From: a virus
IMG/VR virus record: IMGVR_UViG_3300012961_000002
Coordinates: 1-43,697 of that record
Length of the DNA stretch: 43,697 bases
Direction: 5' to 3' (one strand)
Both the position numbers and the translations under genes were made by a program. The notes beneath the pieces were generated by a model. The model did no database searches. It had not been told where the DNA came from and saw nothing but the letters and a program-made list of their open reading frames with translations. Positions 8,273-42,436 of the stretch are shown one piece after another (within the stretch, counting starts at the first letter, position 1; each line of letters starts with the position of its first letter).

Positions 8273-8879
8273 TCCAGATCTGGATCCCCAGTTGGTCAGG
8301 ACCAGTTCCTTGCTGGCTCGAATTACGTTCGGGATTCTGATCGTGGTTGTTCTGTACATCGGTATTGGTACTTGGTACAACCTTCGAGCCAAGGAGTCCG
8401 CCCAGCAGCAGGCCGGGCAGGGCCAGGACCTCGCTGCGGCACTTCAGGCCGAATGTGCCAAGGGTCTCGAATTCTACGACAAGCACCGAGAACTGTGCGC
8501 CAAGGCAGCCAACCTGGACTCCCAGCCTCAGCAGCCTGGTACCGGTCCCCGAGGTGACCAGGGTCTGCGCGGAGAGAAGGGCGATCCCGGGGCCTCAGGT
8601 AGCCCAGGACAGCCCGGACTTAAGGGCGACACAGGAGATACCGGAGCCCCGGGTTTGAACGGCCTGGACGGCTCTCAGGGCTCTCAGGGCTCTAAGGGCG
8701 AGCAGGGGGACACAGGTCCCGCAGGTGGGCCCGGGCAGCAAGGCCCCAAGGGTGAAGATGCGCCCCGGATCACGGACGTTCACCTGGACATGGCCTCGTG
8801 CACAGGGACCATCACCCTATCGGACGGCTCGACTTTCCCGATCTCTATGACCGGGTGCGGGCCCGGAGGAGGAATCTAA
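8259..8879 (+). CDS. membrane-anchored collagen-like (Gly-X-Y) repeat protein
   Basis: GTG 8259 lies 5 nt after GGGGAGG. Has an N-terminal TM helix (ITFGILIVVVLYIGIG) and 24 uninterrupted G-X-Y triplets. Confidence 0.6.
   Translation, partial: RKRANPDLDPQLVRTSSLLARITFGILIVVVLYIGIGTWYNLRAKESAQQQAGQGQDLAAALQAECAKGLEFYDKHRELCAKAANLDSQPQQPGTGPRGDQGLRGEKGDPGASGSPGQPGLKGDTGDTGAPGLNGLDGSQGSQGSKGEQGDTGPAGGPGQQGPKGEDAPRITDVHLDMASCTGTITLSDGSTFPISMTGCGPGGGI
8547..8762 (+). repeat. collagen-like G-X-Y triplet repeat (24 triplets) within CDS 8259..8879
   Basis: Translation reads GPR GDQ GLR GEK GDP GAS GSP GQP GLK GDT GDT GAP GLN GLD GSQ GSQ GSK GEQ GDT GPA GGP GQQ GPK GED. Confidence 0.9.
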
Positions 8880-28218: not shown

Positions 28219-28740
28219 TCAAGCCGCAGTCCATCCGTTTTCGGGGGCGTAGAGGACCGGGTACCCGTACGTCTTGGAGCACATTTCCTGGTAGGTCAGA
28301 GGCCCGAACATCGGAGCCCCATGGATGACCTCATCAGCCCATCGCCACCGGTCCAGAATGTACGCCCGGCTCTTGAAGACTTGGGCCTCGTAGGTCCACA
28401 CCCCCATGAACTTGGACCACGGGTATTCTTCCCGCATCCGTTCGATCACTCTGCGTACGGTTCGGCCTGAGTACACGAAGTCATCGGCGATGATGTACTC
28501 CAGGCCCACGGAGCCTTCGATCCGATAACAAGAGTGTGTCGATTGGTCATCGGGCTTGCGCACGATGGCGAACTTAGAACCTACGGTCGGGGCCACCCGA
28601 GAAACGTACACGGTTCCCGAAAGCCCGGTCCCGACGATGGTGTCAAAACTCACATCGGCAGTCCCAGCCCGGAACTCGGAGAGTAGTTTCCGATTGCTGT
28701 ACGTGAGGGCCTTGCTAAAGTAGCTATCACCCGCGCTCAT
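28219..28740 (-). CDS. type I phosphoribosyltransferase-fold protein
   Basis: PRPP-binding signature EYIIADDFVYSGRTV, plus upstream FDTIVGTGLSGTV...FAIVRK. First gene of the leftward unit. Confidence 0.65.
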   Translation of the reverse strand: MSAGDSYFSKALTYSNRKLLSEFRAGTADVSFDTIVGTGLSGTVYVSRVAPTVGSKFAIVRKPDDQSTHSCYRIEGSVGLEYIIADDFVYSGRTVRRVIERMREEYPWSKFMGVWTYEAQVFKSRAYILDRWRWADEVIHGAPMFGPLTYQEMCSKTYGYPVLYAPENGWTAA

Positions 28741-29349: not shown

Positions 29350-29421
29350 TGGCCAGTAGCTCAACGGTAGAGCAAGGGACTGTTAATCCCTTAGATGTAG
29401 GTTCGAATCCTGCCCGGTCAG
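29350..29421 (+). tRNA. tRNA-Asn (GTT)
   Basis: Acceptor tggccag/ccggtca (one A:C), D stem gctc/gagc, anticodon stem aggga/tccct with loop ctGTTaa, T arm gtagg-ttcgaat-cctgc. Confidence 0.75.
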
Positions 29422-29494
29422 CTTGTTGATCCGACCTTGATCAAGTCGGGGAGACCCAGTCTAGGCGTCCTGGGATATCAAAGATTGCCAGTAA

Positions 29495-29566
29495 CGAAGA
29501 TTAACTCAGTTGGAAGAGTGCCGGTGTGAAGTACCGGATGCACAGGTTCGAATCCTGTATCTTCGG
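29495..29566 (+). tRNA. tRNA-Phe (GAA)
   Basis: Acceptor cgaagat/atcttcg, D stem actc/gagt, anticodon stem ccggt/accgg with loop gtGAAgt (G32, G37), T arm acagg-ttcgaat-cctgt. Confidence 0.75.
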
Positions 29567-29568
29567 CG

Positions 29569-29606: not shown

Positions 29607-29739
29607 TACCAGTGGGACTAGCTTAAGGGGTAAAGCGCTCACCGTTTAGCATGGATTGTGCCGCCCGGGAGGCTGGGCACCGGCTTCGAAACCCGGGATG
29701 GTAGGCATTGACCTAGGGGTTCGACTCCTCCACTCTCCG
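29607..29739 (+). pseudogene. degenerate tRNA-like segment (a good D arm, a long GC hairpin, two T-arm-like motifs, no complete cloverleaf)
   Basis: D arm ta-gctt-aaggggta-aagc. Hairpin tgccgcc...ggc-ggca. T-like motifs ccggc-ttcgaaa-cccgg and agggg-ttcgact-cctcc. I could not find matching acceptor or anticodon stems. Confidence 0.3.
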
Positions 29740-29836
29740 CAGGGTCCATCGCCACAGTTGATCCTCCCGTAGAGGCATCTGAGGTAGCTCCTGAGTCATC
29801 CAACGTGGTGCTCTGGCGGTGTTGACCCTTTACCTT

Positions 29837-29919
29837 GGATTGGTGTAGCTGGGATCTACGGCGCCGCTGCTAACGGCGTAGCCCTTAGGGGCTCGAAGGT
29901 TCGATTCCTTCCCTTTCCG
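29837..29919 (+). tRNA. tRNA-Ser (GCT), long variable arm
   Basis: Acceptor ggattgg/cctttcc (tandem U:U at 4:69 and 5:68), anticodon stem cgccg/cggcg with loop ctGCTaa, variable arm agccc-ttag-gggct, T arm gaagg-ttcgatt-ccttc. Confidence 0.6.
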
Positions 29920-29921
29920 CT

Positions 29922-29988
29922 GGAACTAGGCGGGTCTTAGGGCCCTGGATAGCCGACACTGACTCCGGTAAGAGCAGGGTCTAGTTCC
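29922..29988 (+). pseudogene. 67-nt tRNA-like element with a perfect 7-bp terminal helix but no canonical T loop
   Basis: ggaacta (29922-29928) pairs with tagttcc (29982-29988). The interior does not fold into D, anticodon and T arms. Confidence 0.3.
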
Positions 29989-29992
29989 TTAA

Positions 29993-30064
29993 CGCTCAGT
30001 GACCGAGAGACTAGGTGCCTGGTTGCAACCCAGGTTTACGCCGGTTTGAATCCGGCCTGAGTGT
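29993..30064 (+). tRNA. tRNA-Cys (GCA)
   Basis: Acceptor cgctcag/ctgagtg, anticodon stem cctgg/ccagg with loop ttGCAac, T arm gccgg-tttgaat-ccggc. Confidence 0.7.
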
Positions 30065-30068
30065 CCAA

Positions 30069-30137
30069 CCCGAGGCATCTGGGATGCGGCGCGGCTGTAA
30101 ACCGCTACCGAGTCAGGTTCGATTCCTGGTCGCGGGA
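30069..30137 (+). tRNA. tRNA-Tyr (GTA), atypical 69-nt form
   Basis: Acceptor cccgagg/tcgcggg (one mismatch). The D region is only 14 nt (catc-tgg-gatg hairpin). Anticodon stem cgcgg/ccgct with loop ctGTAaa, T arm tcagg-ttcgatt-cctgg. No long variable arm. Confidence 0.5.
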
Positions 30138-30208
30138 CTAGGCCCTGACGAGGGTCCCTAGGGCTAACGTGGCGCCTAGGCGGGATGAGCCCGACATAGC
30201 TCTCTTAT

Positions 30209-30282
30209 GCCCCTCTAGCCCAACTGGCAGAGGCGTCTGGCTCAGACCCAGAAGGTTCGGAGTTCGAATCTCCGGAGGGGTA
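30209..30282 (+). tRNA. tRNA-Leu (CAG), class-I-like (short variable region)
   Basis: Acceptor gcccctc/gaggggt, D stem gcc/ggc, anticodon stem tctgg/ccaga with loop ctCAGac, 5-nt variable region, T arm cggag-ttcgaat-ctccg, discriminator A. Confidence 0.6.
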
Positions 30283-30381
30283 CTTAACGTAGGATTGACG
30301 GCGACCAGATCCAGCCTCAGTGTCCGAATGGTCCGGATACTGCCTACGTGCGGATTGACCCACCGCTTAATCAGGGTCTCT

Positions 30382-30452
30382 GCCTTCCTCGTCTAATGGA
30401 AAGACTCGGGCGTCGTATCCCCGAAATGTCGGTTCGATTCCGTCGGTTGGCT
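30382..30452 (+). tRNA. tRNA-Thr (CGT)
   Basis: Acceptor gccttcc/ggttggc (tandem U:U), D stem gtct/agac, anticodon stem cgggc/ccccg (C:C at 31:39) with loop gtCGTat, T arm gtcgg-ttcgatt-ccgtc (one U:U). Confidence 0.5.
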
Positions 30453-30524
30453 CTAGGACCCGGTAAGCCCTGACTAAGAGCTGAGTTTGGGTCCAAGCGT
30501 CTAGCCCACGCTGAACGGGCCTCT

Positions 30525-30595
30525 GGTCCATTGGTGTAGCGGTAACACATGTGCCCCTCAAGCATATGTCCTCGGTTCGAATCCGGGATGGATCA
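30525..30595 (+). tRNA. tRNA-Glu (CTC) with C33
   Basis: Acceptor ggtccat/atggatc, D stem gtgt/acac, anticodon stem tgtgc/gcata with loop ccCTCaa (position 33 is C at 30556), T arm ctcgg-ttcgaat-ccggg. Confidence 0.65.
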
Positions 30596-30616
30596 CTTAA
30601 CCTGAGAGGAAGACCC

Positions 30617-31321
30617 GTGCGAGCCCTTCGACTCTTCCTAGCGCTGGTGCTTGGCCTCACGATGGTCATTCCCGGGGCTGAGATGGCCTCTGCGGGCACG
30701 GGAGGGTGGTGCCAGGGTCTCTACACCGGAGCACCGGTCCTGGACCTTCTGGGCGACTCTCAGACGGCAAGTGGCTCGGTCTCTGCCGAAGATCAGCGCT
30801 GGCCCTCAGTGCTGGGAGCTTCACTTCAGTCGGATGGCGCCCCGGGAACTCAGGTCTGGGTCGGTGGCGCCATCGCAGGATCGGCTACCGCCGACTACCT
30901 GCCCGGAGCGAAGTACTCGGATCATATCGAGTTCACGTCTCATCAGCCCAACCTGATCACCCTGGGATGGGGAACCAATGACTGGGCAGGCGGAGTCCCC
31001 GTCGAGACGTTCAGGGCGCAATACCAGACGATCATCGATCGAATCCGGGCTCTTAGCTCTGGCTCCACGGTCGTCATCATTCACATGCCTTGGGTGTACA
31101 ACGAGGAACTCACGAGTACCCGTGCTCCCCAGGCCGACTACCTGAACGTTGAAAAGGATCTCGCCCGTGATAACGGGCTCAAGTTCTTCGGATCGGAATT
31201 CTACTTCCCGGGAAATGATCCGTACAGTTTCAAGTCTCCCCCGGACCAGGTGCACATGACAGCGCTTGGACAGTGGGTGTTCTACTCAGCTTTCCGGAGC
31301 TTCTTGCTCGGGATGTGCTGA
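30617..31321 (+). CDS. secreted SGNH/GDSL-family hydrolase (esterase)
   Basis: GTG 30617 lies 4 nt after GAGAGGAAG. Signal-peptide-like RALRLFLALVLGLTMVIPGAEMASA. SGNH blocks LLGDSQT (I), GWGTNDW (III) and DQVH (V). The upstream part of ORF 30551.. lies inside tRNA-Glu and was discarded. Confidence 0.7.
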   Translation: MRALRLFLALVLGLTMVIPGAEMASAGTGGWCQGLYTGAPVLDLLGDSQTASGSVSAEDQRWPSVLGASLQSDGAPGTQVWVGGAIAGSATADYLPGAKYSDHIEFTSHQPNLITLGWGTNDWAGGVPVETFRAQYQTIIDRIRALSSGSTVVIIHMPWVYNEELTSTRAPQADYLNVEKDLARDNGLKFFGSEFYFPGNDPYSFKSPPDQVHMTALGQWVFYSAFRSFLLGMC

Positions 31322-31325
31322 TCGT

Positions 31326-31394
31326 TAGGGAACGCATGATGCGAGCCTGGTCTCCAAAACCGGGTGCCAGTGAGTTTGACTCTCACTTCCCTTG
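31326..31394 (+). tRNA. tRNA-Trp (CCA), atypical 69-nt form
   Basis: Acceptor tagggaa/ttccctt (U:U at 1:72). 14-nt D region (cgca-tga-tgcg hairpin). Anticodon stem ctggt/accgg with loop ctCCAaa, T arm gtgag-tttgact-ctcac. Confidence 0.5.
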
Positions 31395-31398
31395 CCAA

Positions 31399-31470
31399 TG
31401 GCGCTTAGTTCAGTGGAAGAACAACCGGCCTACACCCGGTATGTCGAGGGTTCGAATCCTTCAGTGCCAA
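31399..31470 (+). tRNA. tRNA-Val (TAC) with C33
   Basis: Acceptor tggcgct/agtgcca, D stem gttc/gaac, anticodon stem accgg/ccggt with loop ccTACac (position 33 is C at 31430), T arm gaggg-ttcgaat-ccttc. Confidence 0.7.
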
Positions 31471-31518
31471 CTTGGTCCCGTTGCAATGCGCCCCTAAGGG
31501 CGGTAACCAGGGACCTTT

Positions 31519-31592
31519 ACCCGATTAGCTCAGAGGAAAGAGCCCTTGGCTACGAACCAAGGCGGTCGCAGGTTCGAATCCTGTATCGGGTT
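31519..31592 (+). tRNA. tRNA-Arg (ACG)
   Basis: Acceptor acccgat/atcgggt, D stem gctc/gagc, anticodon stem cttgg/ccaag with loop ctACGaa, T arm gcagg-ttcgaat-cctgt. Confidence 0.8.
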
Positions 31593-31596
31593 CCAT

Positions 31597-31669
31597 ACCT
31601 TCGTAGTTCAGCGGACAGAACACCGGTTTCCTAAACCGGGTGCCGTAGGTTCGAATCCTACCGAGGGTG
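31597..31669 (+). tRNA. tRNA-Arg (CCT)
   Basis: Acceptor accttcg/cgagggt, D stem gttc/gaac, anticodon stem ccggt/accgg with loop ttCCTaa, T arm gtagg-ttcgaat-cctac. Confidence 0.8.
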
Positions 31670-31726
31670 CGTAGAGAACATAGTTGCCGGTAAAATCCAG
31701 AGCATGAACCGGACGTAGAAGTACAT

Positions 31727-31799
31727 GGGTCTATAGTTTCAACGGTAAAACCCCGGACTCTTAATCCGTGAGATCTAGGTTCGAATCCTAGTAGGCCTA
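31727..31799 (+). tRNA. tRNA-Lys (CTT)
   Basis: Acceptor gggtcta/taggcct, D stem gttt/aaac, anticodon stem ccgga/tccgt with loop ctCTTaa, T arm ctagg-ttcgaat-cctag. Confidence 0.75.
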
Positions 31800-31800
31800 C

Positions 31801-31873
31801 TGCGGGGTAGTGTAATCGGTAACATGACAGTCTCATAAGCTGTGCGATGCGGGTTCGAGTCCCGTCCCCGACA
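31801..31873 (+). tRNA. tRNA-Met (CAT) (or Ile2 if lysidine-modified)
   Basis: Acceptor tgcgggg/ccccgac (1:72 and 2:71 unpaired), D stem gtgt/acat, anticodon stem acagt/gctgt with loop ctCATaa, T arm gcggg-ttcgagt-cccgt. Confidence 0.6.
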
Positions 31874-31915
31874 CCTTTCCCCTGCACCGAGGGAGACGAA
31901 ACTATCGGGCACTAT

Positions 31916-31987
31916 ATGGTACGAGGAAGATGGTAATCCGCTCCGTTCGGGCCGGAGAGATACTGGGTTCGACTCCCAGGTGCCAGA
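31916..31987 (+). tRNA. tRNA-Pro (CGG)
   Basis: Acceptor atggtac/gtgccag (A:G at 1:72), D stem gga/tcc, anticodon stem ctccg/cggag with loop ttCGGgc, T arm ctggg-ttcgact-cccag. Confidence 0.6.
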
Positions 31988-32018
31988 CTAGGTCCCCCGT
32001 GATAAGCGGGGGCCGCAA

Positions 32019-32089
32019 TACCGGTTCGTCTAATGGCAAGATACCAGGCTCTGAACCTGGGGACTGAGGTTCGACCCCTTGACCGGTAG
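32019..32089 (+). tRNA. tRNA-Gln (CTG)
   Basis: Acceptor taccggt/accggta, D stem gtct/agat, anticodon stem ccagg/cctgg with loop ctCTGaa, T arm tgagg-ttcgacc-ccttg. Confidence 0.75.
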
Positions 32090-32091
32090 CT

Positions 32092-32162
32092 CTGTGATTA
32101 GTTCAATGGAAGAATATCCGCCTGTGACGCGGAAGACGTGGGATCGATACCCACATTACAGT
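32092..32162 (+). tRNA. tRNA-His (GTG), no encoded G-1
   Basis: Acceptor ctgtgat/attacag, D stem gttc/gaat, anticodon stem tccgc/gcgga with loop ctGTGac, T arm gtggg-atcgata-cccac (A at position 54). The nt at -1 is T. Confidence 0.65.
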
Positions 32163-32166
32163 CCAT

Positions 32167-32239
32167 GCTGTTCGCGTGTCCGGTTGACCGAAGTTCTCTG
32201 ATAAGGAACTTGTGCTAGGTTCAACTCCTAGGAGCAGTA
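32167..32239 (+). tRNA. tRNA-Ile (GAT)
   Basis: Acceptor gctgttc/gagcagt (two G:U), anticodon stem gttct/ggaac with loop ctGATaa, T arm ctagg-ttcaact-cctag. Confidence 0.65.
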
Positions 32240-32325
32240 CTGTCCCGAGTGATCCTCGGGCGAGTGGGCGCGAAATAGTCCCCCAGTTGGCTAGATCTGG
32301 GTTATCAAATGATTCTAGCTTCAAT

Positions 32326-32397
32326 GGTCCGTTAGCTCAACGGTAGAGCACCATTCTGTCAAGATGGACGGCGCGGGTTCGAATCCCGTACGGATCG
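32326..32397 (+). tRNA. tRNA-Asp (GTC)
   Basis: Acceptor ggtccgt/acggatc, D stem gctc/gagc, anticodon stem ccatt/gatgg with loop ctGTCaa, T arm gcggg-ttcgaat-cccgt. Confidence 0.8.
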
Positions 32398-32436
32398 CAA
32401 GCCTGGCCTAGGGGTAACTCCCTGGTTGGGCGCTTT

Positions 32437-32508
32437 GGGGTTGTAGCTCAAATGGTAGAGCACCGGCGTTGCATACCGGGTGAACGGGTTCGATTCCCGT
32501 CTTCTCCA
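32437..32508 (+). tRNA. tRNA-Ala (TGC)
   Basis: Acceptor ggggttg/cttctcc (G3:U70 present; tandem U:U at 5:68 and 6:67), D stem gctc/gagc, anticodon stem ccggc/accgg (C:A at 31:39) with loop gtTGCat, T arm acggg-ttcgatt-cccgt. Confidence 0.6.
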
Positions 32509-32546
32509 CAGGGGCTCACTGCTGCGCGCAAGCATAGTCCCACAAT

Positions 32547-32620
32547 GGGGTATTGATGTTTAACGGATAGCATGTCAGTCTTCCAAACTGAATGTGTGGG
32601 TTCGAATCCCGCATACCTCA
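32547..32620 (+). tRNA. tRNA-Gly (TCC)
   Basis: Acceptor ggggtat/atacctc, D stem atgt/gcat, anticodon stem tcagt/actga with loop ctTCCaa, T arm gtggg-ttcgaat-cccgc. Confidence 0.75.
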
Positions 32621-32629
32621 CTTCTAGTT

Positions 32630-32661
32630 CCCGCCCGTGCTCCGGTACTGGGCGGGCTTTT
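32630..32661 (+). terminator. intrinsic terminator closing the tRNA array
   Basis: cccgccc (32630-32636) pairs with gggcggg (32650-32656), followed by ctttta. Confidence 0.65.
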
Positions 32662-32676
32662 ACTTATGGAGGCCGC

Positions 32677-34472: not shown

Positions 34473-35126
34473 GTGGATGTCTCCGTTTTGATCCCATGGC
34501 GCGGCGGAGACCCTCAGCGCGAACGCGTGTTCGAGTACGTCTTGATGATGTGGGAGAAGACCGGCGCCGATATCTGCGTCGGCGAAGACGACCCTGGTGG
34601 CCCGTTCAACTGCTCTCGTGCCCAGAACCGAGCCTTTCGGCTCGCCAAGCATGATCGACTGATGATGATCGGTGCCGACACGGTCCCCGATTTCGAACTC
34701 GTCCAAGTTGTATACAATCGACTGGATACCGTCGACTGGTTCCCGCTGTTCCACGAGACTGCGTACTACTCTCAGGAGTCAACGGCCCGGATCCTCTCCG
34801 GAGCGCCCCGAGCCGCTGAGCCCTTTGAGTACGTCCTGCCGTTCTGCACAGGGCCCGTTGCCTTGACCCGTGACGCGTACGTCGCCACGGGGGGCATGGA
34901 TGAGCGGTTCTCCGGTTGGGGCTACGAAGATGCTGCGTTCCGACAGACGCTAGCTGGCCTGTTCGGTGCCCCGCCTGCCGAGCCAAAGACCGCGCGCTGC
35001 CTCTGGCATGAGGTGGGTCATCGTATTGCCGTGTCACCCAACGAAGTGCTCATGAGGGACTATACGCCGCTGACGGAGCCCGTGTCAACCCGTGCCTATC
35101 TGGATCAGAGGGGGTCGTTCCTGTGA
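34473..35126 (+). CDS. glycosyltransferase (GT2 / galactosyltransferase-like)
   Basis: Starts VSVLIPWRG. C-terminal motif GGMDERFSGWGYEDAAF is typical of GT-A enzymes with a Glyco_transf_7C-like end. Confidence 0.65.
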   Translation: MDVSVLIPWRGGDPQRERVFEYVLMMWEKTGADICVGEDDPGGPFNCSRAQNRAFRLAKHDRLMMIGADTVPDFELVQVVYNRLDTVDWFPLFHETAYYSQESTARILSGAPRAAEPFEYVLPFCTGPVALTRDAYVATGGMDERFSGWGYEDAAFRQTLAGLFGAPPAEPKTARCLWHEVGHRIAVSPNEVLMRDYTPLTEPVSTRAYLDQRGSFL

Positions 35127-35691: not shown

Positions 35692-36165
35692 ATGGCTGCC
35701 CCGAAGACTGGACCCGGCGCCAAGAAGCGCCCAGAGGACCGCCTAGGACACCGTACCCGCGCTGAGCAGGCGAAGATGGACGAGATCGTAGTCTCCGATG
35801 AGGAGATCGAGGCTCTGAAGTCCACGCTAACGAGCGATTTGGCTCCGGCCGAGTACTGGCACCCCGTAGCCCTCAAGGGCTGGCAGGGCTTCAATGAGAG
35901 TCCTCTACGTCGATTCTACGAGCAGACAGACTATGTCCAGGCCTGGGTTACGTGCGAACTGATCCACAGGTGCATCGGGGATCGTATGTCCGCGGGTCGC
36001 GCCATGCAGCTCCGGATGTACCTCAACGATCTTGGGTTCACCGAGGGCGCACGCCGCACCATGGACATCGCCATTAAGCGCGAGACTGAGAAGGCGGATC
36101 CGGCCAAGGTCGTAGCCAAGGAGCGCCTGGAAGCGCGACGCGCTAGCCGCACCCGGGGTGCTTGA
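35692..36165 (+). CDS. terminase small subunit (putative)
   Basis: 157-aa ORF immediately upstream of, and overlapping, the large subunit. Call rests on position only. Confidence 0.55.
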   Translation: MAAPKTGPGAKKRPEDRLGHRTRAEQAKMDEIVVSDEEIEALKSTLTSDLAPAEYWHPVALKGWQGFNESPLRRFYEQTDYVQAWVTCELIHRCIGDRMSAGRAMQLRMYLNDLGFTEGARRTMDIAIKRETEKADPAKVVAKERLEARRASRTRGA

Positions 36166-37796
36166 TGCCCGCGGTGAGGATCATGCCCCAGATCCCGGAC
36201 GAGAACCGAACGCTCGGGTGGCAAATCCTTGAGTGGATGGTCGATAATCTCGTTCACGGAGTCACGGGCGAACCGCTGGAACTCACGAACGAGGGCATCG
36301 ACTTTGTTCTGTGCGCGTACGCGATCGATGACGAGGGTCGTTGGCTATATGACCGTGGCGCGCTCCGACGTGCCCGAGGTACGGGTAAGTCCCCGTTGGC
36401 CGCCGCTCTAGCGTGTGCTGAGCTGTGTGGCCCGGTTCGCTTCGGCGGATGGGACGAGGACGGATTCCCGATCGGGGTTCCGGAGCCTGCACCTTGGGTC
36501 CAGATCATCGCTATTACGATGGAACAGACCAAGCCGATCATGGATATCGCCCGAGCTTCGTTCTCGGATGACGCCATTGAGAAGTATGGTCTGGCCATCG
36601 GTGTCGAAGCGATCGTCAAGTCTAACGCCGTAGATGGCGGAGGACCAGGGCGTCTTGCCGCCATCGCCAATAACCCGCGCGCACTTCGAGGGCCTCGCCC
36701 TACGGCTGTGTTCGCGGACGAGGTTTCTGAGTGGATCGCCTCCAACGGCGGCCACGAAGCCATGATTCGTATCAACTCGAACCTGGCCAAGAACCCGGGC
36801 GGTCGTGCCCGTCTGTTCGAGTTTTGTAACGCTTACGAGCCTGGGCTGGATTCACATGCCGAGCGAACGTTCGCGGCGTACGCGAAGCAGATGGAGACCT
36901 TCGGGTTCTCGCGGATTCTGTACGATGCTCTAGAGGCTGATCCGGCCCTTAAGCTCACCATTCTGGAAGAGCTTGAAGAGGCTATCAGGCAGGCCGCTGG
37001 TGATGCGCACTGGCTTGATGTCCGGCGCCTGATCAACCAGGCCCTGGACACGGGTACGTCTCCGACGACGTTCCGTCGTGAGCACCTGAACCAGATTCTG
37101 TCCGACGATGATTCACTCATCTCTATGCCGTTGTTCGATGAGCTAGGGCAGCGTGTCGCGCCTCTGGAAGAGGACGACGTTATCACGCTCGGGTTCGATG
37201 GGTCACTCTCGGGAGACGGTACGGCCATTGTGGCTTTCCGTCTTGAGGACCGCTCTTTCCACCTCCTGGAATACTGGGAGCCTCCGGAGAAGCAGGACCC
37301 GAACTCGCCCAAGTGGCGAATCGATGAAGAGATGGTTGATCAGAGTTTTAGGGCCTACATGGAACGTTTCAATGTTGTTGCCGCGGCGTGCGACGTCCAC
37401 CCGTTCGAATCCTGGGTTTACGCCTGGGAGAAGGATTACGGGCAGAAGCTTCAGGCTAAGGCCTCAACAGCCGGTCAGCTGATTCGCGATAACCGTACCG
37501 ATCAGCGCGGTTTGACGTTCTTGTGCGAGGCTCTAGTAAACGAGATCGAGTCTAAGAAGATCCACTTCCGAGCTACGTATTCGATGCGTATGCACTGGGC
37601 GAACGCGAAGCGTCGCCTGAACCGGTGGGGATATTCGTTCGGTAAGATCACTAAGTCGTCCACGAAGCGCGTCGATATTGTCGCTGCTTCACTCATGGCG
37701 TACGGCGCCGCATCCGCGTTGGCTAAGGACTTCAATACCAAGAAGCTGAAGCCTGCGCGCGTACACCGCCTCAAGGGGGGTAGTAACGAATGGTAG
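36162..37796 (+). CDS. terminase large subunit
   Basis: 544 aa. Walker A-like RARGTGKSPLAAA and an acidic Walker B-like VFADEVSEW. Followed by the portal gene. Confidence 0.8.
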   Translation: MMPAVRIMPQIPDENRTLGWQILEWMVDNLVHGVTGEPLELTNEGIDFVLCAYAIDDEGRWLYDRGALRRARGTGKSPLAAALACAELCGPVRFGGWDEDGFPIGVPEPAPWVQIIAITMEQTKPIMDIARASFSDDAIEKYGLAIGVEAIVKSNAVDGGGPGRLAAIANNPRALRGPRPTAVFADEVSEWIASNGGHEAMIRINSNLAKNPGGRARLFEFCNAYEPGLDSHAERTFAAYAKQMETFGFSRILYDALEADPALKLTILEELEEAIRQAAGDAHWLDVRRLINQALDTGTSPTTFRREHLNQILSDDDSLISMPLFDELGQRVAPLEEDDVITLGFDGSLSGDGTAIVAFRLEDRSFHLLEYWEPPEKQDPNSPKWRIDEEMVDQSFRAYMERFNVVAAACDVHPFESWVYAWEKDYGQKLQAKASTAGQLIRDNRTDQRGLTFLCEALVNEIESKKIHFRATYSMRMHWANAKRRLNRWGYSFGKITKSSTKRVDIVAASLMAYGAASALAKDFNTKKLKPARVHRLKGGSNEW

Positions 37797-41320: not shown

Positions 41321-42436
41321 ATGCGGATTCGTGCCCGAGGGGGATCACCTGTGATGACGGCGCCTACAGAGGTGGCCTTGCGGATGATCGCCTTGGGTGC
41401 GACTCCGGATTCGCTCCGCAGCAAGCACGTTAAGCCACGCCAGGACCTCGGTCGACCGGCCCGGGTCCTGGCGGTGGTTCATGGGTGGATGCCGTATCTT
41501 GCCGCTGGTTCTGAGCGCATGGTCCAACACATGTTGGACGCGCTCCCGCGCGAAGAGTTCGAGGTCCACATCCTTTCCCTGGGGTACGGAAACGACCCGG
41601 GGATCAATAACTTTTACATGTACGAGGGTACTCCGGTTACCGTGGGATACGAACCGCCGTTCGTTCCAGACATTATTGTCACGCACCACGGCCCGGGTTC
41701 CCGTGTAGTTCAGGCGCTTTGCCAGGACTTCCCGGACGCCCGTGTAGTGGCCGTGTACCACAACGAGCGGTACGATATCGAAGACATCAAGTCTTTGAAC
41801 GCTGAACTGGAAGTCTTTAATACCTGGTGGGTCGGTGGCTCGGTTCGCCGTGCCGGTGCCGCGGGTTTGAGCGGCCTGGAACAGGGCATCATCGTCGTTC
41901 ATCCGCCCCTGGAGCCGGACCGCCACCGAGTCGAAGAGACTGGGTCCGCGGTTACACTAGTCAATCTGCAAGAGAACAAGGGTGTGCGCGTGTTCCAGGA
42001 GCTTGCGCGCAGGATGCCCGATGTTCGATTCCTGGGCGTGGAAGGCACGCACGGGACCCAGGAACGGCCGAAGATCCCGAACGTCGAGTACATGCCCGTG
42101 ACGCAGGACATGCGCGACGTGTGGCGAAAGTCCAGGGTTGTTCTCATGCCGTCGGGGTACGAGTCTTATGGAATGGTTGCCGCCGAGGCACAGGTGAACG
42201 GTATTCCGGTCATCGCCAACCCCACCGCGGGCCTAGCCGAATGCCTGGGCAACGCTGGTATTTTCATTCCGCGGTCGAACATTGACGACTATGAGCGAGC
42301 TTTGAGGCTTCTCCTCGAAGATCGTAAGCACTATCAGGAGCGGTCCGAGATGGCCCGTCTTCGAGGGCAGGAACTTCAGTCTCAGACAGAGCGGGAACTG
42401 GCCCGATTCATTGATGAAATGAGGAGGCTGTCATGA
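41321..42436 (+). CDS. glycosyltransferase (GT-B, GT1/GT4-like) inside the head module
   Basis: C-terminal motif SGYESYGMVAAEAQVNGIPVIA (E-x7-E type). The ATG follows AAGGAG. The start is somewhat uncertain. Confidence 0.65.
   Translation: MRIRARGGSPVMTAPTEVALRMIALGATPDSLRSKHVKPRQDLGRPARVLAVVHGWMPYLAAGSERMVQHMLDALPREEFEVHILSLGYGNDPGINNFYMYEGTPVTVGYEPPFVPDIIVTHHGPGSRVVQALCQDFPDARVVAVYHNERYDIEDIKSLNAELEVFNTWWVGGSVRRAGAAGLSGLEQGIIVVHPPLEPDRHRVEETGSAVTLVNLQENKGVRVFQELARRMPDVRFLGVEGTHGTQERPKIPNVEYMPVTQDMRDVWRKSRVVLMPSGYESYGMVAAEAQVNGIPVIANPTAGLAECLGNAGIFIPRSNIDDYERALRLLLEDRKHYQERSEMARLRGQELQSQTERELARFIDEMRRLS

Follow-up and report, generated by a model that had tools for sequence, protein, structure and literature searches.

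The 43,697-nucleotide (nt) virus record IMGVR_UViG_3300012961_000002 of IMG/VR, analysed over its whole length and called the window here, contains an array of 22 transfer RNA (tRNA) genes, many of which break rules that tRNAs follow almost universally. All 22 are real genes under selection for structure. On balance, we lean towards the view that they form a complete, structurally constrained set of decoders that has been remodelled where tRNA-targeting defences grip, with the evasion motive suggested by analogy to known phage systems. A first-pass annotation had already argued that the deviations are selected designs and not random decay. This is borne out by 47 compensatory double changes relative to the nearest relative, by conservation of the tRNA genes far above that of most spacers, and by the recurrence of the oddities at isotype-specific positions in many unrelated viral contigs.

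The array and its nearest relative

With default settings, ARAGORN recognized 20 tRNA genes for 18 amino acids on the plus strand between positions 29350 and 32621. Two additional compact genes have Tyr and Trp anticodons, which correspond exactly to the two amino acids missing from this set; with them, the 3.3-kb array has 22 tRNA genes and covers all 20 amino acids, Ser and Arg being represented twice. The 29-bit gathering score of the Rfam model RF00005 was reached by 16 genes (33.8-65.9 bits), and no RF00005 match was listed for Tyr, Trp, Pro, Ile, Ser-CGA and Ser-GCT even at E ≤ 10. Of the 18 amino acids that have several codons, 14 have an array tRNA whose cognate codon is the one the phage uses most, and the Ala, Gly and Val tRNAs carry U34. 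This codon match differs from the pattern of rare-codon supplementation.

The nearest relative of the window is the IMG/VR contig 3300048996_000004 (L001; L007 and L012 are the same contig), which possesses the same 22 tRNA genes in the same order. The features of the array are as follows (all on the plus strand).

29350-29422, plus: tRNA-Asn(GTT), canonical (ARAGORN; RF00005 63.8 bits)
29495-29567, plus: tRNA-Phe(GAA) with G32 (ARAGORN; RF00005 59.8 bits; L001 orthologue U32)
29653-29740, plus: tRNA-Ser(CGA) with long variable arm, U4:C69 and U5:U68 (ARAGORN; 99% identity to L001)
29837-29920, plus: tRNA-Ser(GCT) with long variable arm and tandem U:U at 4:69 and 5:68 (ARAGORN; four compensatory changes elsewhere in the gene relative to L001)
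29993-30067, plus: tRNA-Cys(GCA) with encoded CCA (ARAGORN, Rfam)
30069-30137, plus: compact tRNA-Tyr(GTA) (covariance model R1, 82.7 bits; ARAGORN at 85% threshold, 89.5; five compensatory changes relative to L001)
30209-30283, plus: tRNA-Leu(CAG), 75 nt, no long variable arm, class-II-type D arm, A73 (ARAGORN; homologous short Leu genes in Gordonia phage Boopy)
30382-30453, plus: tRNA-Thr(CGT) with U4:U69, U5:U68, C31:C39, G32 and a U:U in the T stem (ARAGORN; RF00005 33.8 bits)
30525-30596, plus: tRNA-Glu(CTC) with C33 at 30556 (ARAGORN; loop ccCTCaa also in L001 and L136)
30617-31321, plus: GDSL/SGNH hydrolase open reading frame (ORF) (PF13472)
31326-31397, plus: compact tRNA-Trp(CCA) with G73, including the encoded CCA (69-nt body 31326-31394; four compensatory changes relative to L001; covariance model R2, 41.9 bits; 3' two-thirds resembling annotated tRNA-Trp genes)
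31399-31471, plus: tRNA-Val(TAC) with C32 and C33, the latter at 31430 (ARAGORN; L001 U32, U33)
31519-31595, plus: tRNA-Arg(ACG) (ARAGORN, Rfam)
31597-31670, plus: tRNA-Arg(CCT), canonical (RF00005 65.9 bits)
31727-31800, plus: tRNA-Lys(CTT) (ARAGORN, Rfam)
31801-31875, plus: tRNA-Met(CAT), elongator-like, with U1:C72 and G2:A71 unpaired (ARAGORN; L001 G1:C72, C2:C71)
31916-31988, plus: tRNA-Pro(CGG) with A1.G72, G8 and a D stem of 3 base pairs (bp) (ARAGORN; no RF00005 match; six compensatory changes relative to L001 with A1.G72 kept)
32019-32090, plus: tRNA-Gln(CTG) (ARAGORN, Rfam)
32092-32165, plus: tRNA-His(GTG) without G-1 (T at 32091), with U73 and T loop AUCGAUA (A54, A60) (ARAGORN; L001 G-1:C73, UUCGAAU)
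32167-32240, plus: tRNA-Ile(GAT) with G8, a weak D stem and T loop UUCAACU (ARAGORN; no RF00005 match; 100% identity to L001)
32326-32398, plus: tRNA-Asp(GTC), canonical (RF00005 64.2 bits)
32437-32509, plus: tRNA-Ala(TGC) with G3.U70, U5:U68 and U6:U67, C31:A39 and G32 (ARAGORN; 100% identity to L001)
32547-32621, plus: tRNA-Gly(TCC) (ARAGORN; RF00005 39.5 bits)
32630-32665, plus: terminator-like hairpin CCCGCCC...GGGCGGG followed by a T run (pairing kept in L001)

Relatives were sought by megablast against cultured phages, by scans of IMG/VR with the terminase and GDSL proteins, by one metagenome scan and with an Ile-based DNA pattern. These searches yielded L001 as the only syntenic contig; elsewhere they hit either short contigs that lack the array or arrays that are unrelated, and no cultured phage matched the array at the DNA level. 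Across the 22 orthologous pairs, the 47 compensatory double changes were accompanied by 19 one-sided changes that keep the pair and by at most 24 apparent breaks, many of which are artefacts of alignment indels. The tRNA genes were 60-100% identical to those of L001, versus 12-57% for most spacers, a few conserved spacer blocks excepted.

The first-pass annotation had proposed to check whether related phages conserve C33, the mini D arm and the U:U mismatches. Present in L001 are C33 of Glu, G32 and C31:C39 of Thr, the whole Ala gene (with its tandem mismatch), the tandem mismatches of both Ser genes and of Thr, A1.G72 of Pro, the short Leu, and compact Tyr and Trp with their D arms. Not kept are C32/C33 of Val (UU in L001), G32 of Phe (U), the T-stem U:U of Thr (U.G) and the end and T loop of His (G-1:C73, UUCGAAU). 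Less conserved genes are His (66% identity), Pro (73%), and Leu and Trp (78% each). The mosaic conservation of the orthologous tRNAs suggests recombination among arrays or very uneven constraint.

The annotation had also set the deviant genes beside perfectly canonical neighbours. This description fits Arg-CCT (65.9 bits) and Asp (64.2 bits); Gly scored only 39.5 bits. It had also missed G8 and the lack of an RF00005 match in Pro-CGG and Ile-GAT, Ile having in addition a weak D stem and the T loop UUCAACU. Among the conserved spacer blocks, the 71-nt spacer between Tyr and Leu (30138-30208) is about 98% identical to that of L001, and the block 29993-30240, comprising Cys, Tyr, this spacer and the 5' part of Leu, is at least 88% identical. 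We considered the spacer as a hidden RNA gene and rejected this, as its fold z-score was -1.4 and no homologue was found outside the L001 contig. It is more likely a part of a recently shared block, although it may be an unrecognised element.

Compact tRNA-Tyr and tRNA-Trp genes

Tyr-GTA (30069-30137) and Trp-CCA (31326-31394) had been described as sharing one 69-nt design. The hairpin of 4 bp and a 3-nt loop directly 3' of the acceptor stem is present in both, but the supposed lack of GG in the D loop does not hold for Tyr (loop UGG), and the supposed 6-nt variable region is better described as an extended anticodon stem, which is backed by covariation. The common plan consists of a 7-bp acceptor stem, an 8-9 linker of 0 nt, a 4-bp D stem with a 3-nt loop, a longer anticodon arm, a short variable region and a normal T arm. 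Both genes depart from canonical tRNAs, which have a 2-nt linker, a D loop of 7-11 nt and a 5-bp anticodon stem, and agree with them in the 7-bp acceptor stem, the 7-nt anticodon loop (with U33 and a purine at 37), the intact T arm with a 5-bp stem and a 7-nt loop, and the 19:56 elbow pair. Tyr has A5.G68 in the acceptor stem, the D hairpin CAUC-UGG-GAUG, an anticodon arm of 4 bp, a C/UA internal loop and 3 bp, a 2-nt variable region, and A73. Trp has U1:U72, the D hairpin CGCA-UGA-UGCG, 7 contiguous bp in the anticodon arm, a 4-nt variable region, the T loop UUUGACU (U56), G73 and an encoded CCA.

ARAGORN called Tyr only when the threshold was lowered to 85% (score 89.5) and did not call Trp even at 75%. 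The annotation had named covariance models as the means of finding alternative canonical folds, and Rfam searches of 86-91-nt segments found none: there was no RF00005 match and there were only weak matches to tRNA-Sec (RF01852). Therefore, we rejected a canonical fold for either gene. Identity as tRNA-Sec or allo-tRNA was rejected as well, since the scores of 17.5 bits (Tyr) and 26.5 bits (Trp) are far from the gathering score of 47 and are also under the 29 bits of RF00005, the anticodons are wrong and the long arm is missing.

Ten compact Tyr genes from contigs other than the window and L001 served to build covariance model R1. It matched 30069-30137 over its full length (model positions 1-68) with 82.7 bits (E 8.7e-20), and the next-best match in the window had 29.1 bits. 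The corresponding model for compact Trp (R2, five sequences) aligned with Trp end to end at 41.9 bits but proved unspecific, as Arg-CCT scored 42.7 bits, so that it lends little weight to Trp. Compared with L001, Tyr has five compensatory double changes without any pair being broken, the changes affecting acceptor pairs 1:72, 4:69 and 6:67, the D stem and the extra helix (CGG/CCG to CAG/CUG); Trp shows four, one in the anticodon stem, two in the T stem and one in the acceptor stem.

In the compact Tyr family (14 members), 84.7% of the cells were paired versus 60.6% after shuffling, the covariation score was 0.645 versus 0.198, both sides had changed in 19 of 23 pairs, and pairing was 36-50% when the partners were slid by 1-3 columns. 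Pair 5:68 is unpaired in 12 of the 14 members and is A.G wherever it was read; it is thus a conserved feature and not damage. Pair 1:72 is C:G in seven members, G:C in four and U.G in two. The window Tyr has all the characteristics of this family, namely the GUA anticodon, A73, the unpaired 5:68 and an NGG-containing D loop of 3-5 nt, and the window Trp has those of the compact Trp genes: the CCA anticodon, G73, a D stem of 4-5 bp with a 3-4-nt loop, and a 12-nt stretch separating D loop and anticodon loop. The supply of the two missing anticodons, the compensatory changes relative to L001 and the independent match of the Tyr model together indicate that compact Tyr and Trp are real genes under structural selection.

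Nearly all compact Tyr and Trp genes have 12 nt from the D loop to the anticodon loop, however these are shared among D stem, linker and anticodon stem; canonical tRNAs have 10 nt there. The 2-3 additional Watson-Crick pairs that lengthen the anticodon stem would replace the tertiary core layers 8:14, 15:48 and 26:44 and would let the 3-nt D loop reach the T loop, thus preserving the L-shape. In L001, the Trp D loop UGG occurs with the T loop UUCGACU (C56), versus UGA with U56 in the window. Only three genes of the whole Trp collection have U56 (the window, L111 and L129), and all three have GA rather than GG in the D loop. Since U56 always occurs with A19, the last base of the D loop acts as N19, and the 19:56 elbow pair is kept.

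A comparable core is found in tRNA-Pyl and in mammalian mitochondrial tRNA-Ser(UCN), which have an acceptor-D linker of 0-1 nt, a very short D loop, a long anticodon stem and a short variable region and attain the L-shape via helical pairs. These compact-core tRNAs have been reviewed (PMC7609411). The window Tyr and Trp share with them a linker of at most 1 nt, the short D loop, an anticodon stem of at least 6 bp and the short variable loop, and are more extreme in having a 3-nt D loop and a 7-8-bp anticodon stem. The compact-core tRNAs lack G18G19 and the T-Psi-C motif, read with a CUA or UGA anticodon and have a dedicated synthetase. Unlike them, the window Tyr and Trp have equivalents of G18/G19 (GG, or GA with U56), TTCGA or TTTGA T loops, the 19:56 pair, and ordinary Tyr and Trp anticodons and discriminators, and their genes belong to viruses of bacteria. 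The likeness is one of architecture and, by the comparisons made, an analogy and not homology. With tRNA-Sec, the two genes have in common the short D loop and the closed stem, and they differ from it in lacking a long variable arm and a UCA anticodon and in the 7/5 arrangement of acceptor and T stems, versus 8/5 or 9/4 in the 13-bp acceptor/T domain of tRNA-Sec.

One narrow Tyr pattern found 42 loci in IMG/VR, some solitary and some in arrays. Nearly all of them have a short variable region and a hairpin of 4-5 bp with a 3-5-nt loop, nearly always with GG; ARAGORN with default settings called 26 and missed 16. The loci L030 and L044 have a long (83-84 nt) canonical tRNA-Tyr plus a short compact one, so both forms can coexist in one phage. 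The Trp pattern found more than 119 loci with about 108 unique sequences, about a quarter of them compact with the anticodon at 29-31; the compact Trp plan occurs in about 20 distinct viral sequences with highly varied D stems, and the plan is seen occasionally in Asp, Met, Gln and Ala tRNAs. In 185,579 species genomes, the Tyr pattern was found at only 22 places, with compact forms in Glutamicibacter, Paenarthrobacter and Arthrobacter (Micrococcaceae) and in Micromonospora, which points to actinobacterial hosts and probably to prophages.

Among cultured phages, Streptomyces phage phiHau3 has a compact Trp gene annotated as tRNA-Trp (JX182369, 1200-1272), and Bradyrhizobium phage BDU-MI-1 has a related copy annotated as 'tRNA-Pseudo-CCA'. 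The phiHau3 gene resembles that of the window in the 7-bp acceptor stem, the 0-1-nt linker, the 4-bp D stem with a 3-4-nt GG loop, the extended anticodon stem and G73. The BDU-MI-1 copy, with a D loop of 7 nt, is less compact than that of phiHau3. The window Trp differs from both copies in having UGA with U56 instead of NGG with C56, and in U1:U72.

Arm loss, acceptor mismatches and loop deviations

For the other deviations we compared the window with a sample of 1022 unique tRNAs (1018 scored) from 1.63 Mb of almost exclusively viral contigs, gathered via the Tyr and Trp patterns. The claim that the sole Leu decoder and the Tyr decoder have no long variable arm proved correct. The variable region is about 5 nt in Leu-CAG (75 nt in total) and 2 nt in Tyr, versus at least 10 nt with a stem in class II tRNAs, whereas other class II features are present: A73 in both, and a 3-bp D stem and a long D loop in Leu. 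Short Leu genes made up 50 of the 90 unique Leu genes of the sample and came from 38 sources, and all 50 had A73 and a 9-11-nt D loop; the long arm of Ser was kept in 80 of 81 genes. Ser synthetase requires the long arm, and Leu and Tyr synthetases can manage without it. Leu and Tyr lose the arm while Ser keeps it and varies in the acceptor stem, an isotype pattern that fits the evasion reading. Three short Leu genes with a D arm almost identical to that of the window are annotated in Gordonia phage Boopy (MK894436). Like Leu-CAG of the window, they have 75-76 nt, the D arm UAGCCCAACUGGCAGAGG, G1.U72 and A73, and only the anticodon and the stem sequences differ. As far as the searched literature shows, these genes have been annotated but not discussed.

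The folds of ARAGORN reproduced the tandem U:U mismatches reported for Ser-GCT, Thr (4:69/5:68) and Ala (5:68/6:67), the additional U:U in the T stem of Thr, and the unpaired 1:72 ends of Met (U1:C72, next to G2:A71) and Pro (A1:G72). Ser-CGA, which lies outside the range of the annotation, has U:C and U:U at the same 4:69/5:68 place. U:U is the commonest acceptor mismatch in the viral sample (67 cases). Tandem pyrimidine mismatches recur at isotype-specific positions: at 2:71/3:70 in Trp (17 other sequences and the compact Trp of L001), at 4:69/5:68 in Ser (window, L001, L019, L032 and L050) and in Thr (window, L001 and L031), and at 5:68/6:67 or 6:67/7:66 in Ala. In Thr of L001, U5:U68 is changed to C5:U68, while 7:66 is changed from C:G to G:C and 27:43 from C:G to A:U; at 4:69/5:68 of Thr, it is the unpaired state itself that is conserved. 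The pairs read by synthetases (G3.U70 in Ala; 1:72 and 2:71 in Thr) lie away from the tandem mismatches. More generally, the main identity determinants are retained, i.e., G3.U70 and A73 in Ala, G1:C72 and C2:G71 in Thr, the long arm and G73 in Ser, A73 in Leu and Tyr, G73 in Trp, and G72 and A73 in Pro; the exception is the window His. The rules of tRNA identity have been reviewed (PMC9976931).

The anticodon-loop deviations were likewise present in the ARAGORN folds, with C33 in Glu-CTC (ccCTCaa) and Val-TAC (ccTACac), G32 in Phe, Thr and Ala, and C:C (Thr) or C:A (Ala) at 31:39. For His, the reported T at -1 (32091) and A54 (T loop ATCGATA) were found together with T73. In the sample, the frequencies were 2.9% for C33, 1.3% for G32, 2.8% for A54 and 3% for tandem pyrimidine acceptor mismatches; among the 22 genes of the window, there were two C33, three G32, one A54 and four tandem pyrimidine mismatches. 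These counts indicate an excess even against other phage tRNAs, with P < 0.01 for G32 and for tandem mismatches by a rough hand binomial estimate, which is conservative because the sample includes the window and L001. C33 of Val-TAC recurs in L013, and A54 of His (T loop AUCGAUA) in L076 and L102. G-1 is encoded in only about 8 of the 26 phage His genes of the sample.

Two other loci have unusual C33 tRNAs. Locus L136 (542-2688, minus strand) has six of them, for Glu-TTC, Glu-CTC, Arg-TCT, Ser-CGA, Thr-GGT and Gln-CTG, and at L019 a tRNA (8338-8413) with C33 and the amber-reading CTA anticodon, which may be a suppressor tRNA, lies beside a compact Tyr.

Genome context and explanations of the remodelling

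The 43.7-kb window, with about 60% G+C, looks like an essentially complete genome of actinophage type, from a circularly permuted tailed phage. It encodes a terminase small subunit, a homologue of the large subunit, a major capsid protein, a family-A DNA polymerase, a DnaB-like helicase and a PD-(D/E)XK nuclease; ORF 36162-37796 has no Pfam match and is 36-40% identical to terminase large subunits of Streptomyces, Arthrobacter and Curtobacterium phages. A Pfam scan of 30 ORFs of the window (some small ORFs were left out) gave no match to a synthetase, nucleotidyltransferase, ligase, Thg1-like or tRNA-processing protein. Host enzymes must therefore serve these tRNAs, and the dependence on phage-specific processing or charging suggested in the annotation is unsupported.

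The GDSL/SGNH hydrolase within the array (PF13472, 6.9e-19) has a hydrophobic, signal-peptide-like N-terminus. Its mechanically assigned start at 30551 overlaps tRNA-Glu, and GTG at 30617 with GAGAGGAAG upstream is thus the more likely start. It is 74% identical to the L001 copy, and a homologue with 50% identity in Ga0268253_10000045 (L198) is again flanked by tRNA genes. The terminator-like hairpin right after the last tRNA (Gly) closes the array, and changes of its stem in L001 keep the pairing; the region upstream of the array showed no sigma-70-like promoter. Just upstream, ORF 28219-28740 (minus strand) has a weak match to the phosphoribosyltransferase family PF00156 (24.4 bits, under the cut-off). 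Two glycosyltransferase-like ORFs (34473-35126 and 41321-42436, plus strand) lie in the structural module, one directly following the major capsid gene, and recall the virion glycosylation of some actinophages. In other phage tRNA arrays we noticed genes for transfer-messenger RNA (tmRNA): L200 (4531-4882) and L202 (2537-2888) in IMG/VR, and L172 (1810-2211), which is Gordonia phage Boopy.

If the array is a remodelled decoder set, as we lean towards believing, host synthetases would still charge the altered tRNAs, the altered surfaces (anticodon loop, 31:39 pair, long variable arm, acceptor stem, D loop and core) would be the handles of tRNA-targeting defences and toxins, and the array would keep phage translation going once host tRNAs are cleaved or blocked. 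Several systems act at such places. Retron-Eco7 PtuAB cleaves E. coli tRNA-Tyr within the variable loop (PMC12673091). Blocking of tRNA-Ser by the MenT3 toxin of M. tuberculosis depends on the long variable loop, and once the loop is deleted the tRNA is no longer modified efficiently (PMC11162799, PMC11541572). AriB of the PARIS system cleaves at 40/41, and two substitutions (39, 41) in T5 tRNA-Lys defeat it (PMC12409363), and mycobacteriophage tRNAs have anticodon-loop changes and differ from those of the host at VapC sites (PMC10264068). The window resembles these nuclease-evasive phage tRNAs, including T5 and SP15 tRNA-Tyr in the case of Retron-Eco7 PtuAB (PMC11555353, PMC12673091), in the organization as a phage array, in the anticodon-arm deviations (C33, G32, 31:39) and in covering the commonest codons; tRNA-Tyr, the known target of the Retron-Eco7 PtuAB defence, is also remodelled in the window. 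It differs from them in that arm loss, a rebuilt D arm and core, and tandem acceptor mismatches go beyond point changes in the anticodon arm. SP15 tRNA-Tyr keeps and needs its long variable loop, unlike the window Tyr.

Several points weigh against this explanation. The C1:G72 pair of the window Tyr has the archaeal/eukaryotic orientation, which is disfavoured by E. coli tyrosyl-tRNA synthetase, and the window His (U-1, U73) has neither of the two main determinants of histidyl-tRNA synthetase and may work poorly. The viral sample, because of the way it was gathered, is not unbiased. No covariation information comes from Ser-CGA, Cys, Arg-CCT, Ile, Asp and Ala, six genes whose identity to L001 is 97-100%. 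Finally, drift would predict deviations that L001 lacks, as is the case for C33 of Val, G32 of Phe, the end and T loop of His, and the U:U in the T stem of Thr. Tolerated drift would mean that the tRNAs work but merely supplement those of the host under weak selection, and that the oddities are neutral or slightly deleterious and persist by descent. The scatter of C33, G32 and A54 across many isotypes at 1-3% agrees with this as well, and common descent may explain part of the recurrence of GGATTG-type Ser genes. We nevertheless regard drift as unlikely to account for the array, since mismatches persist while their neighbours covary (4:69/5:68 in Thr; A5.G68 in Tyr, which is kept while four other acceptor pairs flip), compaction needed several coordinated changes with preservation of the 19:56 pair, and the arm was lost in Leu and Tyr but not in Ser, with mismatches placed isotype-specifically.

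The remaining explanations fare worse. That the genes which deviate most, namely compact Tyr and Trp and perhaps also His, Ile and Pro, act as decoys, titrating host nucleases, toxins or other tRNA-binding factors instead of decoding, would fit their poor scores in standard models and the neutralization of PtuAB toxicity by overexpressed phage or host tRNA-Tyr (PMC12673091), and roles of some viral tRNAs beyond translation rescue have been considered (PMC12409363). It is nonetheless improbable, because Tyr and Trp exactly complete the amino-acid set and have 7-nt anticodon loops with U33 and a purine at 37, A73 (Tyr) or G73 and CCA (Trp), and intact T arms and elbow pair. Slightly more improbable still is that the designs suit an enzyme encoded by the phage or an unusual one of the host (a synthetase, Thg1-like protein, nuclease or ligase) and are inert with ordinary bacterial enzymes: C1:G72 and the missing long arm of the window Tyr, His without G-1 and C73, and the many sampled phage His genes without encoded G-1 would speak for it, but the 30 scanned ORFs of the 43.7-kb genome include no such Pfam match, 1:72 of the compact Tyr family varies freely, and the same designs occur in phages of very different gene content. 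As to decaying pseudogenes or fold artefacts, the compact-Trp copy annotated as a pseudogene in a cultured phage and the failure of RF00005 and default ARAGORN to find Tyr and Trp might suggest them; we consider them highly improbable in view of covariation in every helix, the match of the independent model to Tyr (E 9e-20), conservation far above that of most spacers and the reproduction by ARAGORN of the folds first drawn for the other genes.

In full-text literature (subscription papers were outside the scope), we found no description of compact-D phage tRNAs, of short phage Leu or Tyr tRNAs or of acceptor designs with U:U. Phages go unmentioned in a review of non-canonical tRNAs, and according to a 2024 paper, every known bacterial tRNA is a canonical cloverleaf (PMC11551756). 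Evasive phage tRNAs are already known, and the literature searched has no account of remodelling at the level of architecture, while single examples sit in GenBank as tRNA-Trp, tRNA-Leu or pseudogene. Since standard detectors miss or mislabel these genes, inventories of phage tRNAs and the status of arrays as complete sets are underestimated.

For decades it has been debated why phages carry tRNAs, and recent work has shown that some phage tRNAs escape defence nucleases by point changes in the anticodon arm. The array and the related genes suggest a deeper remodelling, with deletion of whole arms, a rebuilt core and programmed non-Watson-Crick pairs at isotype-specific places. We tentatively propose, with less assurance than for the window itself, that phages of actinobacteria and some others have repeatedly rebuilt whole tRNA architectures as a shape-level camouflage against tRNA-targeting immunity, while keeping the synthetase identity elements and the anticodon-to-elbow geometry. 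In this camouflage, D arm and core would be collapsed into a continuous helix, the long arm of Leu and Tyr deleted, and tandem U.U placed in acceptor stems. Compact-D tRNAs apparently working in bacterial cells would qualify the statement in the 2024 paper cited above that bacterial tRNAs are canonical cloverleaves, and would offer ready scaffolds for the engineering of orthogonal tRNAs. If the camouflage proposal is true, fully functional non-canonical cloverleaves would operate in bacterial translation and would form a natural catalogue of the tRNA shapes that are tolerated by the bacterial ribosome, EF-Tu and the synthetases.

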